Shown here: piece by piece, positions 2,767-11,768 of the stretch
Numbering within the stretch: the stretch's first letter is position 1
How the letters are laid out: each line of letters starts with the position of its first letter
NCBI RefSeq assembly: GCF_054482525.1
Contig: NZ_CM137006.1
DNA: 64,000 bases
Reading direction: 5' to 3' (one strand)
Notes under the pieces: model-generated
Databases searched by the model: none
The model's input: only the letters and a program-made list of their open reading frames with translations
Told to the model about the DNA's origin: nothing
Position numbers and translations under genes: made by a program

Positions 2767-4905
2767 ATGACACCGCATGTGATGAAACGAGACGGCTGCA
2801 AAGTGCCGTTTAAATCAGAGCGCATCAAAGAAGCGATTCTGCGTGCAGCTAAAGCAGCGGAAGTCGATGATGCCGATTATTGCGCCACTGTTGCTGCGGT
2901 TGTCAGCGAGCAGATGCAGGGCCGCAACCAGGTGGATATCAATGAGATCCAGACCGCAGTTGAAAACCAGCTGATGTCGGGTCCATACAAACAACTGGCT
3001 CGTGCTTACATCGAGTACCGTCACGATCGCGACATTGAACGTGAAAAACGCGGTCGCCTGAACCAGGAGATCCGTGGTCTGGTCGAGCAGACCAACTCCT
3101 CGTTACTCAACGAAAACGCCAACAAAGACAGCAAGGTGATTCCAACCCAGCGCGATCTGCTGGCCGGGATCGTGGCTAAACACTATGCACGCCAGCACCT
3201 GCTGCCGCGTGACGTGGTGCAGGCACATGAACGTGGTGATATTCACTATCACGATCTCGATTACTCGCCGTTCTTCCCGATGTTCAACTGCATGTTGATC
3301 GACCTGAAAGGCATGCTGACCCAGGGCTTTAAAATGGGGAACGCCGAGATTGAACCGCCGAAGTCGATCTCTACGGCAACCGCTGTAACTGCGCAGATTA
3401 TTGCTCAGGTCGCCAGCCATATTTATGGCGGCACCACCATTAACCGTATCGATGAAGTGCTGGCACCGTTTGTCACCGCCAGCTACAACAAACATCGCAA
3501 GACCGCAGAAGAGTGGAACATCCCGGACGCCGAAGGCTACGCTAACTCTCGTACCATCAAAGAGTGCTACGATGCCTTCCAGTCGCTGGAGTACGAAGTA
3601 AACACCCTGCACACCGCCAACGGTCAAACACCGTTTGTGACCTTTGGTTTTGGTCTGGGCACCAGCTGGGAATCGCGCCTGATTCAGGAATCTATCCTGC
3701 GTAATCGTATCGCAGGCCTCGGTAAAAACCGTAAAACTGCGGTGTTCCCGAAACTGGTGTTTGCGATTCGCGATGGCCTGAACCATAAAAAAGGCGATCC
3801 GAACTACGACATCAAACAGCTGGCGCTGGAGTGCGCAAGCAAGCGCATGTATCCGGATATCCTGAACTACGATCAGGTAGTGAAAGTCACCGGTTCGTTT
3901 AAAACCCCGATGGGCTGCCGCAGCTTCCTCGGCGTGTGGGAAAATGAAAACGGCGAGCAGATCCACGATGGTCGTAACAACCTCGGCGTGATCAGCCTGA
4001 ACCTGCCGCGTATTGCTCTGGAGGCAAAAGGCGATGAAGCCACCTTCTGGAAGCTGCTGGATGAACGTCTGGTGCTGGCACGTAAGGCGCTGATGACCCG
4101 TATCGCTCGTCTCGAAGGCGTGAAAGCGCGCGTGGCCCCGATCCTCTATATGGAAGGTGCTTGTGGCGTGCGTCTCAATGCTGACGATGATGTTTCTGAA
4201 ATCTTCAAAAACGGTCGTGCGTCTATTTCGCTGGGTTACATCGGCATCCACGAAACCATTAACGCGCTGTTCGGCGGCGAGCATGTTTACGACAACGAGC
4301 AGCTTCGCGCGAAAGGTATCGCGATTGTTGAACGTCTGCGTCAGGCGGTGGATCAGTGGAAAGAAGAAACGGGTTATGGTTTCAGTCTCTACAGCACGCC
4401 AAGTGAAAACCTGTGCGACCGCTTCTGCCGTCTCGATACCGCTGAGTTTGGCGTGGTGCCGGGCGTGACCGATAAAGGTTACTACACCAACAGTTTCCAC
4501 CTTGATGTGGAGAAAAAGGTGAACCCGTATGACAAGATCGACTTTGAAGCGCCTTACCCGCCGCTGGCGAACGGTGGTTTCATTTGCTACGGCGAGTATC
4601 CAAACATTCAGCACAACCTGAAGGCGCTGGAAGATGTCTGGGATTACAGCTATCAGCATGTACCGTATTACGGCACCAATACGCCGATCGATGAGTGCTA
4701 CGAGTGTGGCTTTACCGGTGAGTTCGAGTGCACTAGTAAAGGCTTCACTTGCCCGAAATGTGGTAACCATGACGCCTCCCGTGTGTCGGTGACTCGCCGC
4801 GTGTGCGGATATTTAGGTAGCCCGGATGCACGTCCGTTTAACGCTGGTAAGCAGGAAGAAGTTAAGCGCCGCGTTAAACATTTGGGAAATGGGCAGATCG
4901 GTTAA
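2767..4905 (+). CDS. nrdD: anaerobic ribonucleoside-triphosphate reductase (glycyl radical enzyme)
   Basis: 712 aa; C-terminal RVCGYLG glycyl-radical motif and Cys-rich Zn site; recognised as NrdD. Confidence 0.95.
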   Translation: MTPHVMKRDGCKVPFKSERIKEAILRAAKAAEVDDADYCATVAAVVSEQMQGRNQVDINEIQTAVENQLMSGPYKQLARAYIEYRHDRDIEREKRGRLNQEIRGLVEQTNSSLLNENANKDSKVIPTQRDLLAGIVAKHYARQHLLPRDVVQAHERGDIHYHDLDYSPFFPMFNCMLIDLKGMLTQGFKMGNAEIEPPKSISTATAVTAQIIAQVASHIYGGTTINRIDEVLAPFVTASYNKHRKTAEEWNIPDAEGYANSRTIKECYDAFQSLEYEVNTLHTANGQTPFVTFGFGLGTSWESRLIQESILRNRIAGLGKNRKTAVFPKLVFAIRDGLNHKKGDPNYDIKQLALECASKRMYPDILNYDQVVKVTGSFKTPMGCRSFLGVWENENGEQIHDGRNNLGVISLNLPRIALEAKGDEATFWKLLDERLVLARKALMTRIARLEGVKARVAPILYMEGACGVRLNADDDVSEIFKNGRASISLGYIGIHETINALFGGEHVYDNEQLRAKGIAIVERLRQAVDQWKEETGYGFSLYSTPSENLCDRFCRLDTAEFGVVPGVTDKGYYTNSFHLDVEKKVNPYDKIDFEAPYPPLANGGFICYGEYPNIQHNLKALEDVWDYSYQHVPYYGTNTPIDECYECGFTGEFECTSKGFTCPKCGNHDASRVSVTRRVCGYLGSPDARPFNAGKQEEVKRRVKHLGNGQIG

Positions 4906-5062: not shown

Positions 5063-5527
5063 ATGAATTATCATCAGTACTATCCTGTCGACATCGTCAA
5101 CGGCCCCGGCACTCGCTGCACCCTGTTTGTCTCCGGGTGTGTTCATGAATGCCCCGGTTGCTATAACAAAAGCACCTGGCGGGTAAATTCCGGTCAGCCA
5201 TTTACCAAAGCAATGGAAGACCAGATCATTAACGATCTGAATGACACTCGCATCAAACGCCAGGGGATTTCCCTCTCCGGCGGCGATCCGCTGCATCCGC
5301 AAAACGTGCCGGATATTCTGAAACTGGTACAACGCATCCGCGCCGAATGTCCGGGTAAAGACATTTGGGTGTGGACAGGCTATAAACTCGACGAACTCAA
5401 CGCTGCGCAAATGCAGGTTGTTGATTTGATTAACGTACTGGTCGACGGCAAATTTGTGCAGGATTTAAAAGACCCTTCCCTGATCTGGCGCGGCAGCAGC
5501 AATCAGGTGGTGCATCATTTGCGTTAG
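5063..5527 (+). CDS. nrdG: anaerobic ribonucleotide reductase activating protein (radical SAM)
   Basis: 154 aa; CVHECPGC radical-SAM cysteine motif near N-terminus. Confidence 0.95.
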   Translation: MNYHQYYPVDIVNGPGTRCTLFVSGCVHECPGCYNKSTWRVNSGQPFTKAMEDQIINDLNDTRIKRQGISLSGGDPLHPQNVPDILKLVQRIRAECPGKDIWVWTGYKLDELNAAQMQVVDLINVLVDGKFVQDLKDPSLIWRGSSNQVVHHLR

Positions 5528-5818
5528 TCACTCATCCAGCCGTTTAGTCGCGTCTTCATAAACGGCTGAGTTCTCTCTCTTACCAATAGCTATCACCAAC
5601 ACGAGCAACTCTTTATCGTTAACCTGATAAACCAGGCGATATCCCTGTGTGCGCAGCTTAATTTTGTAGCAGTCCGGTAAATCCCGCAGTTTAGCCGATG
5701 GATTGCGCGGCCTTTTCAGCACATCCTCAAGCTTTTTTTTAAATTGTTCCCGGACTGTCACGCCCAGTTTTTGCCACTCTTTCAGCGCCCGCGGATCAAA
5801 CGCCAGCTCATAGTTCAT
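5528..5818 (-). CDS. RelE/ParE-family type II toxin (mRNA interferase-like)
   Basis: About 97 aa from ATG at 5816-5818 (ORF-track frame extends further upstream); RelE-like sequence; start overlaps stop of upstream antitoxin gene. Confidence 0.72.
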   Translation of the reverse strand: MNYELAFDPRALKEWQKLGVTVREQFKKKLEDVLKRPRNPSAKLRDLPDCYKIKLRTQGYRLVYQVNDKELLVLVIAIGKRENSAVYEDATKRLDE

Positions 5819-6050
5819 CCAGTCGGACCTTAATGGCCTCTTGTGGGTTGGCCAGTCGTTCCCTGACAGTGCGTAACAAGGCTTCTTCACTATCACTGAC
5901 AGTGAGCGTTTTTACCGGCATTCGTCCATTTTCCGCAACGTACTGAAACAGCAGTCGCACTGCTTCAGTAGGCGTGATATTTAATTTTTCCAGCACCGCA
6001 TAAGCCTCATTTTTCAGTTTGTCATCCAGGCGGACGTTAAGTGTGGCCAT
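5808..6050 (-). CDS. RelB/DinJ-family antitoxin
   Basis: 80 aa; N-terminal MATLNVRLDDKLK resembles ribbon-helix-helix antitoxins; GGAGG Shine-Dalgarno 5 bp upstream; 11-bp overlap with toxin gene. Confidence 0.7.
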   Translation of the reverse strand: MATLNVRLDDKLKNEAYAVLEKLNITPTEAVRLLFQYVAENGRMPVKTLTVSDSEEALLRTVRERLANPQEAIKVRLDEL

Positions 6051-6074
6051 TATGCCTCCGGTAATTATGAAAAG

Positions 6075-6110
6075 TGTAATGCATTATAGCATTACATATG
6101 CATTACATTC
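6075..6110. promoter_or_regulatory. putative toxin-antitoxin operator: palindrome TAATGCATTA plus three GCATTA(C) repeats
   Basis: Read directly from sequence 25-60 bp upstream of antitoxin start codon. Confidence 0.4.
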
Positions 6111-6241
6111 ATTTCTGGAAAACGCCTCGCAAAAATGAGGACGACACGCAGGAATATGCCGTGGTGAAGATAGATATTGCGGTGATTTTACGAAGGGAGA
6201 AGAAAGCGTTGGGCGGTAACGTTTCACCGCCCAATAAGGAA

Positions 6242-6631
<390 letters not shown>

Positions 6632-6810
6632 TCACTTCCTTTTTTATTTACACTTCATCCTTCACACTGCCTCATCGACGGCTACGCTCATTCGCCCGAG
6701 TCACGTACTGCGAGTACGCTCCCCGGCCCTCATTCACTTTCCGTCTCGATGCAGTGCGAATGATTTTGTGTAATTTTTTAGTTTATAGCGCGGCAGGTCG
6801 CGCCAGTTTT

Positions 6811-10394: not shown

Positions 10395-11768
10395 TTACTG
10401 CGCGGCTTCCGCTTTCTTCGCCAGTCCATCCAGCAGTTTCTGATGGATCCCACCAAAACCGCCATTGCTCATCACCAGAATATGGTCGCCAGGCTGAGCG
10501 GTTTTCACCACCATATCTGCCAGCGTATCCACATCGCCGCTCCAGTGTGCAGGCTGAACGCAGGCTTCTGCCACTTCTGCCACCTGCCACGGAATATGCG
10601 CCGGTTGCAGCAGGAAGACTTCATCGGCACGACCTAATGAAGGTGCCAGATCGTCTTTGCAGATCCCCATTTTCATGGTATTCGAGCGCGGTTCCAGCAC
10701 AGCAATAATGCGCGCCGTACCACCAACTTTGCCACGCAGCGCCGCCAGCGTTGCCAGAATCGCCGTCGGGTGATGGGCAAAATCGTCATATACCGTGACG
10801 CCATTCGCTTCACCACGCAACTCCAGACGGCGACGAGCATTAATAAACGAACCCAGCGCGTTAGCGGCATCTGCCGGCGCTACACCAACATGGCGAGCCG
10901 CCGCAATCGCCATCAGGCCATTGTGCATATTATGTTCGCCTACCAGCGACCATTTCACTTCACCCACTTTTTCGCCATCCAGCAAGACTTCCCATTCAGA
11001 AGCGTCAGTGGTCAGCTTTTTCGCCTGCCAGTGACCTTGCTCGCCCACCAGCTCCTGCTCGCTCCAACAGCCCATCGCCATGGTCTGTTTCAGGTTGATG
11101 TCGTTTTCCGGCCAGATAATACGGCCCTGCCCCGGAACGATACGCACCAGATGGTGGAACTGTTTCTGGATCGCTTTCAGGTCGTCAAAGATATCGGCGT
11201 GATCGAACTCAAGGTTGTTGAGGATCAGCGTACGCGGGCAGTAATGGACAAATTTAGAGCGTTTGTCGAAGAAGGCGCAGTCGTACTCATCCGCTTCGAT
11301 AACAAAGAAGTCGCTTTCGCCCAGACGCGCCGAGACCTCAAAGTTCCCCGGCACACCGCCGATCACAAATCCTGGTTTGTAACCGCACTGTTCCAGAATC
11401 CAGGTCGCCATTCCCGCTGTAGTCGTTTTACCGTGTGTACCGGCGACGGCCAGCACCCAACGGTCACGCAGCACAAAATCGTGCAGCCACTGCGGACCTG
11501 ACATATAAGGGATGTTTTTTTCCAGTACCGCTTCCACACACGGATTTCCACGGGTCATGGCGTTGCCAATAATCACCAGATCCGGCTGCGGTTCGAGCTG
11601 GCTGGCATCGTAACCCTGAATCAGTTCAATGCCTTGCTTCTCAAGTAAGGTGCTCATCGGCGGATACACATTGGCGTCCGAACCCGTTACTTCATGGCCT
11701 AACTGGCGCGCCAGCATCGCCAGACCGCCCATAAACGTGCCACAAATTCCTAAAATATGAATGCGCAT
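10395..11768 (-). CDS. mpl: UDP-N-acetylmuramate:L-alanyl-gamma-D-glutamyl-meso-diaminopimelate ligase
   Basis: 457 aa; Mur ligase fold sequence recognised as Mpl. Confidence 0.95.

Follow-up and report, generated by a model that had tools for sequence, protein, structure and literature searches.

A probable relO-type operator of variant layout at a relBE-family toxin-antitoxin operon of Escherichia coli

In relO, the operator of the relBE operon in the Qin prophage of E. coli K-12 (TTGTAATGACAT·TTGTAATTACAA), four hexads of the form [A/T]TGT[A/C]A are arranged in two abutting 12-mers (PMC2812701, PMC3507626), and the TGTAA hexad has been mapped as the recognition element of the antitoxin RelB (PMC2812701). 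In relO, positions -10 to +17 are protected, the -10 box GATACT lies upstream of the operator, and each 12-mer is occupied by one RelB dimer, both dimers being on one face of the helix (PMC2812701, PMC3507626). Both RelB2 and RelB2E bind relO cooperatively and repress the operon; optimal binding involves a pair of adjacent RelB2E trimers, excess RelE leads to a clash and to release of the complex, and insertion of 2 bp between the relO half-sites causes 45-fold derepression (PMC2812701, PMC3507626). In the model of K-12 RelB on DNA, S3, the residue at position 5 and R7 contact bases whereas K13 and S28 contact the backbone, and the R7A, K13A and S28L/R substitutions result in 83- to >100-fold derepression (PMC2812701). 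The template for that model was the complex of the phage P22 Arc operator, the paradigm of the ribbon-helix-helix (RHH) family. A further pair of genes, STM4449-STM4450 of Salmonella Typhimurium, is listed as a relBE-family toxin-antitoxin (TA) pair (PMC3868539, retracted; PMC8708949). A search of the open-access literature found no study of the promoter of the paralogue described here, nor of the operator of the Salmonella module.

The window that we analysed, a stretch of 64,000 nucleotides from an E. coli chromosome, contains nrdD, nrdG, cybC (cytochrome b562) and pmbA, and a variable module of two minus-strand genes sits between nrdG and cybC. The antitoxin gene (5808..6050, minus strand, with the ATG at 6050..6048) encodes an 80-aa RelB-family RHH protein, and the toxin gene (5528..5818, minus strand; RelE family toxin in the RefSeq annotation) encodes a 96-aa RelE-family protein. 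The antitoxin comes first and the toxin follows directly downstream on the same strand, with an 11-nt overlap at the antitoxin stop. Pfam assigns the antitoxin to RelB above the cut-off (6.1e-16), and over its full length the protein matches the PDB structures of K-12 RelB (4FXE chain A and 2K29; 1.2e-20), with 38 of 80 residues identical (47.5%). The toxin matches Pfam ParE_toxin (6.6e-15; RelE/ParE superfamily) and is identical to K-12 RelE at 61 of 96 residues (63.5%), and all five catalytic residues of RelE-type mRNA interferases (K52, K54, R61, R81 and Y87) align in it. By gene order, antitoxin family and toxin residues, the module is assigned to the RelBE type II toxin-antitoxin systems. 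A Shine-Dalgarno sequence, GGAGG (6055..6059, minus strand), precedes the antitoxin ATG by 4 nt, and the block from this sequence to the ATG is 95% conserved; upstream, the promoter region of the operon is delimited by the terminator-like hairpin of cybC (6209..6234, minus strand; 11 pairs followed by CGCTTTCTTC).

The module (window positions 5525-6240) is a presence/absence polymorphism, with the whole 851-bp stretch found in 390 and the promoter region in 452 of 5,426 complete E. coli genomes. Other genomes, such as L001, have an empty site between nrdG and cybC, with a different cybC terminator, and at least one (L002) has a decayed copy in which relE is frameshifted and relB is deleted together with the promoter/operator. 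A metagenomic E. coli-like copy (L127, around 3270-3330) carries a 1-nt deletion in the distal repeat arm described below (atgaataatgc vs. atgaatgtaatgc) and an antitoxin open reading frame of 73 aa with an altered C-terminus; this copy, too, may be decaying. The module also adjoins nrdG in Salmonella and Klebsiella, where it lies downstream of a gene for a PRD-type regulator; STM4449-STM4450, which adjoin nrdG (STM4451), are presumably the orthologous locus. The copies in S. enterica subsp. arizonae and diarizonae (L011 and L012), whose antitoxin is 89% identical to that of the window, have the same three repeat arms upstream, with TATAAT as the spacer, and L012 likewise adjoins nrdG. Unlike in E. 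coli, the Salmonella and Klebsiella module is preceded at about 50 nt by the end of the PRD-type regulator gene. That gene (L012, 1201-1422; L030, 74-1423) ends in ...AMECVSRF and stops about 50 nt upstream of the putative operator, whereas the E. coli intergenic region (window 6140-6200) retains a recognisable remnant of the 3' end of the PRD gene and has cybC in its place. The E. coli arrangement thus seems to be what remains of a larger ancestral locus and not a recent insertion.

The original prediction placed a perfect 10-bp palindrome, followed by GCATTA repeats at 8- and 11-bp spacing, immediately upstream of the antitoxin start. All of these elements are present: the palindrome TAATGCATTA occupies 6077-6086 (plus-strand coordinates), the GCATTA copies start at 6081, 6089 and 6100, and the element is 24 nt upstream of the ATG. 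GCATTA also occurs in inverted orientation at 6077-6082, both copies further downstream are actually 9 nt long (GCATTACAT at 6089-6097 and 6100-6108), and the 8-mer GCATTACA occurs three times, once on the minus strand (6075-6082) and twice on the plus strand (6089-6096 and 6100-6107). Two larger symmetries had been overlooked, namely an 8-bp inverted repeat with a 6-nt spacer (TGTAATGC at 6075-6082 and GCATTACA at 6089-6096) and a 10-bp inverted repeat (6075-6084 and 6098-6107). Read on the coding (minus) strand from 6107 to 6075, the element is TGTAATGC-ATA-TGTAATGC-TATAAT-GCATTACA. It comprises a distal arm, TGTAATGC (6100..6107), which is a direct repeat of the middle arm at 11 bp start to start; the middle arm, again TGTAATGC (6089..6096), which is the left arm of a 22-bp inverted repeat; and a proximal arm (6075..6082), which reads GCATTACA on the coding strand and TGTAATGC on the plus strand and is the right arm of that repeat. 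Measured between centres, the inverted arms are separated by 14 bp, a distance that is not a whole number of helical turns. Hexads of the RelB type occur here as ATGTAA (6097..6092 and 6108..6103) and GTGTAA (6074-6079, plus strand).

The spacer of the inverted repeat coincides with a predicted -10 hexamer, TATAAT (6083..6088, minus strand). Together with the TG at 6091..6090, where the TG(C) is the end of the middle arm, it reads TGcTATAAT, a perfect match to an extended -10 element. In an alignment of 32 upstream sequences (defined below), the TG one base before the spacer is invariant, and the spacer columns are T (32), A (32), T or A, A (30), A, C or T, and T (32); the variants TATAAT, TAAACT, TATATT, TAAAAT, TATTAT, TATACT and TATAGT all fit TAnnnT. 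The combined pattern, TGnTAnnnT, looks like an extended -10, read by eye and supported by the column pattern, and with this signature in the spacer the arms would flank and overlap the predicted core promoter. The arms flank the predicted extended -10 at 24-38 nt upstream of the antitoxin ATG, and the proximal arm spans about -6 to +2 of the predicted promoter. A sigma-70 consensus scan of positions 5500-6700 found no promoter and no -35/-10 pair, as a result of the poor -35 (2-3 of 6 matches). We rejected TCCAGA (6119..6114) as the -35 element of TATAAT because the spacer would be 25 nt; TCCAGA followed after 17 nt by TGTAAT (6119..6091) is a weak alternative promoter candidate. The surrounding block TTTTTGCGAGGCGTTTTCCAGAA (6113..6135, minus strand), in which each of the TCCAGAA bases is kept in 26-31 of the 32 sequences, is retained where the sequence further upstream is unrelated, and it may belong to the promoter.

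To compare these elements among orthologous loci, we scanned one genome per species and identified 35 loci encoding antitoxin relatives at 58-100% identity, in Escherichia, Citrobacter, Salmonella, Trabulsiella, Enterobacter, Huaxiibacter, Pseudocitrobacter, Silvania, Kluyvera, Kosakonia, Klebsiella, Pluralibacter, Erwinia, Rosenbergiella, Volucribacter and a Thiotrichaceae metagenome-assembled genome (MAG). The upstream alignment comprised 32 sequences, the window and 31 of the 35 loci, from at least 15 genera. The middle arm (6096..6089) is invariant (32/32), the proximal arm (6082..6075) is 99% conserved and the distal arm (6107..6100) is 96% conserved, compared with 66% for the 3-nt gap between the distal and middle arms, 63% for the 5'UTR and 66% for third codon positions of the antitoxin. 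The arms are the most conserved non-coding bases across the orthologous loci, above the neutral rate. The core of two inverted 8-mers separated by 6 nt is found in 33 of the 35 loci and the third copy, at exactly 11 bp, in 31; the distal copy is absent in Erwinia, in Volucribacter and on an Acinetobacter plasmid.

The same comparison does not bear out the units originally proposed. The palindrome TAATGCATTA (6077..6086, on neither strand in particular) is found in just 12 of the 35 loci, those with a TATAAT spacer, since it arises as a by-product where the -10 hexamer abuts the proximal arm, and we rejected it as the binding unit. Similarly, the GCATTA 'copy' at 8-bp spacing (GCATTAtA) is the -10 hexamer plus GC rather than a conserved repeat, and was rejected as a third direct repeat. 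As judged from the alignment, it is three 8-mers that are conserved as units: two in direct orientation, 11 bp from one another, and a third in inverted orientation across a 6-bp spacer. The parse that accords with conservation on the coding strand is TGTAATGC-N3-TGTAATGC-N6-GCATTACA.

Comparison of this element with relO shows both a common vocabulary and a different layout. The antitoxins are homologous RHH proteins, and T3, N5, R7, K13 and T28 here correspond to S3, N5, R7, K13 and S28 of K-12 RelB and are invariant or conservatively replaced in the 35 orthologues. The sites have the TGTAA/TTACA word and approximately the same length; in a gap-free alignment, 15 of 22 positions match between the 22-bp core TGTAATGCTATAATGCATTACA and relO (TGTAATGACATTTGTAATTACA), with the outer TGTAATG and ATTACA identical. 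In both, the repeats recur at roughly one helical turn (12 bp in relO, 11 bp here), and relO overlaps the core promoter of its own operon, as the element here would do with the predicted promoter. However, both inner hexads of relO are missing here and are replaced by GC-TATAAT-GC, so that the element lacks the two 12-mers of four hexads; it has instead three arms of the 8-mer TGTAATGC, where relO has two 12-mers that are each an inverted pair of hexads, and the third, upstream direct copy has no counterpart in relO. The -10 hexamer, a predicted one here, lies inside the inverted repeat, but in K-12 it is upstream of the operator, and binding has been demonstrated for relO whereas here it is predicted from the sequence. 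On this comparison, the reading head and the DNA word are conserved, and the layout of the site and its register with the promoter differ. Because of the different layout, the stoichiometry and cooperativity rules of K-12 may not transfer to this locus. The P22 Arc operator is a more distant parallel: it is a partly symmetric, promoter-overlapping site of about 21 bp on which two RHH dimers occupy adjacent major grooves, as would be the case on the inverted repeat here, but its sequence is unrelated, and Arc has no TA module, no toxin co-repressor and no third site. In the Thiotrichaceae MAG (L038, 1440-1475), the N-terminus of the antitoxin, MATLNVRLDDKLKS, is the same as in the window, and the sequence upstream consists of two abutting 12-mers, TTGTATGTACAC and TTGTCATTACAA, that is, the layout of K-12 relO and not the 8-N6-8 layout, which suggests that one reading head can serve both.

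The inverted repeat also occurs with more distant RelB proteins. An Acinetobacter lwoffii plasmid encoding a RelB of 41% identity has TGTAATGC-AATTT-GCATTACA upstream, and Volucribacter (58% identity) has TGTAATGC-CAAATT-GCATTACA; plasmid-borne RelBs of the K-12 type are preceded by a relO of the K-12 type. A metagenome scan for TGTAATGC-N5/6-GCATTACA yielded at least 121 sites; at least 37 of them have a RelB-like open reading frame no more than 450 bp away, and these represent at least three RelB clades. The occurrence of the repeat with RelB on a plasmid, in Volucribacter and in metagenomes indicates that it is a feature of this branch of RelB, and, by its distribution among these loci, the third copy is placed as an addition specific to Enterobacteriaceae. 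A scan of viral contigs for the 22-bp pattern gave 8 matches, none of which adjoins a RelB or RelE homologue. In three phage-like contigs (L041, around 10794-10880; L042, around 69-150; and L100), a single TGTAATGC-N6-GCATTACA is followed by tandem copies of TGTAATGC (cattgtaatgcttgtaatgcttgtaatgcttc), with no RelB or RelE homologue detectable near the palindrome.

At least 16 of the metagenomic sites lie directly upstream of a gene for an antitoxin of the AbrB/MazE/PrlF type (M[AT]TLTVTARGQVTFRK...) that is followed by a PIN toxin. In these VapB-VapC loci (L059, L060, L072, L077, L086, L087, L102, L129, L130, L157, L162, L164 and L169), the palindrome is GTAATGC-N6-GCATTAC. Members of the family that were fetched by protein and not by DNA pattern (L172-L178, palindrome around positions 330-400) have relaxed versions of it in the same place, and the distance to the start codon ranges from 14-30 nt in the pattern-selected loci to about 40 nt in the protein-selected ones. 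The family comes from metagenomes, Pseudomonas syringae and Ramlibacter. The inverted repeat and its position upstream of the antitoxin start are nearly the same as in the RelBE module, but the VapB fold is a swapped-hairpin AbrB/MazE fold, the toxin is a PIN domain and the candidate operator has no third direct copy. Two unrelated DNA-binding folds behind almost the same inverted repeat may reflect convergence, cassette exchange or coincidence. It is a tentative idea, which we consider rather doubtful, that GTAATGC-N5/6-GCATTAC does not belong to a single antitoxin but is a portable operator word common to several RelB clades, from Enterobacteriaceae to Acinetobacter plasmids, and to a large family of AbrB-fold VapB-VapC modules. 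If it were true, promoter-operator cassettes would have been exchanged between TA families of differing folds, or different folds would have converged on a palindrome of promoter-like hexamers (TGTAAT resembling a -10 and ATTACA a -35), and cross-repression between paralogues through the shared TGTAA hexads would be possible in E. coli strains that have this module as well as the Qin relBE. The VapB palindrome, if more than coincidence, would bear on the evolution of TA operators and on cross-talk between modules.

The repeats are probably, in our reading, a relO-type autoregulatory operator of the RelBE-family operon that occludes the predicted extended -10 promoter. Of the four other explanations that we weighed, chance clustering of a short AT-rich word without function is the least probable. 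Within the window, GCATTACA occurs 7 times compared with 2.5 expected, 3 of the 7 being in this element, and the only cluster of any 8-mer present at least three times within 35 bp on either strand is the one described here; such clusters also appeared in 12 of 200 dinucleotide shuffles (6%; mean 0.065 per 64 kb), so that the window taken by itself is only of borderline significance (about 0.06). The case for more than chance comes from the position in the 191-bp promoter region and from conservation in other genera, at 96-100% vs. about 65% at neutral positions, and the cluster is associated with RelB genes in independent contexts; conservation has already effectively refuted this explanation. 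It is improbable, if less so than chance, that the inverted repeat acts as RNA, either as a weak terminator or attenuator of read-through from upstream (from cybC, or from the PRD-type regulator elsewhere) or as a stabilising mRNA stem. The scan lists a terminator-like stem of 8 bp with a 6-nt loop followed by CTTTTCATAA, the RNA from 6112 to 6060 folds at -14.5 kcal/mol (z = -4.2), and the arms show just two substitutions (A>G, in L035 and L037), both of which would leave G-U pairs in place. However, arms that are invariant and free of compensatory changes are the pattern of protein recognition and not of pairing, and since the arms do not vary, covariation cannot serve as a test of the hairpin. 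Moreover, conservation does not extend to the T-run that follows the stem, the distal third copy lacks a partner with which to pair, and cybC has its own, stronger terminator (6234..6209); if the spacer is the -10, transcription of the operon begins no earlier than the proximal arm, and its transcript cannot fold into the stem.

Slightly less remote, and still unlikely, is the possibility that a different protein binds the arms, for instance a host regulator or a factor common to several TA families. The presence of GTAATGC-N6-GCATTAC at the same position in VapB-VapC loci shows that the word is not exclusive to RHH proteins, and because the palindrome also precedes a non-RHH VapB, sequence alone does not identify an RHH protein as the binder. 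Nevertheless, the palindrome loci span Enterobacterales, Pasteurellales, Moraxellales and unidentified metagenomic organisms, on chromosomes and plasmids, a taxonomic spread that makes a common third-party factor unlikely, and in the one relative that has been tested RelB itself contacts TGTAA hexads. Sites of the CytR, FNR and NrdR type were considered and appear not to fit the conserved bases. The strongest of the competing explanations, although we give it only a small probability, is that the element is simply a promoter, in which the TGTAAT and TATAAT hexamers are overlapping -10-like sigma-70 boxes conserved for RNA polymerase. The three same-strand hexamers match TATAAT at 5/6, 5/6 and 6/6 positions, the spacer hexamer behaves like a -10, and TCCAGA with TGTAAT at 17 nt would provide a second possible promoter, and conservation extends to the TCCAGAA block. 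Promoter function would, however, leave unexplained the invariant GC after each hexamer, as well as the invariant inverted arm GCATTACA at about -6 to +2, an arm that plays no part in recognition by sigma-70; relatives keep both inverted arms around a spacer that does not resemble a -10 (AATTT, Acinetobacter), and the same hexads are the proven RelB site in K-12.

Under the operator reading, RelB-like dimers would insert the two-stranded N-terminal beta-sheet (T3, N5 and R7) into the major groove at the TGTAATGC arms, with two dimers on the 22-bp inverted repeat bracketing the -10 hexamer and a further dimer on the direct copy upstream, at a distance of one helical turn (11 bp). With about -31 to +2 covered in this way, RNA polymerase would be excluded. 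If the operon behaves like K-12 RelBE, the toxin would serve as a co-repressor at a low toxin:antitoxin ratio, excess toxin would destabilise the complex (conditional cooperativity), and Lon-dependent loss of the antitoxin would derepress the operon. The original prediction of an autoregulatory operator for an RHH antitoxin is thus favoured as regards function, by the Pfam RelB match, the TGTAA hexad and the conservation of the arms, whereas its proposal of a dimer of dimers has no simple fit to three sites. Most likely, as far as the sequence comparisons go, the arrangement is ordinary, well-understood TA autoregulation of the relO kind with a variant layout.

The analysis supplies a regulatory annotation for a variable relBE-family module whose orthologues occur in many Enterobacteriaceae, subspecies of Salmonella enterica among them. 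The element would represent a natural variant of relO, with the same reading head and outer half-sites but with the -10 inside the operator and an extra site upstream, and this variant layout would be a convenient test of how the conditional cooperativity of RelB-type antitoxins depends on the spacing and number of sites.
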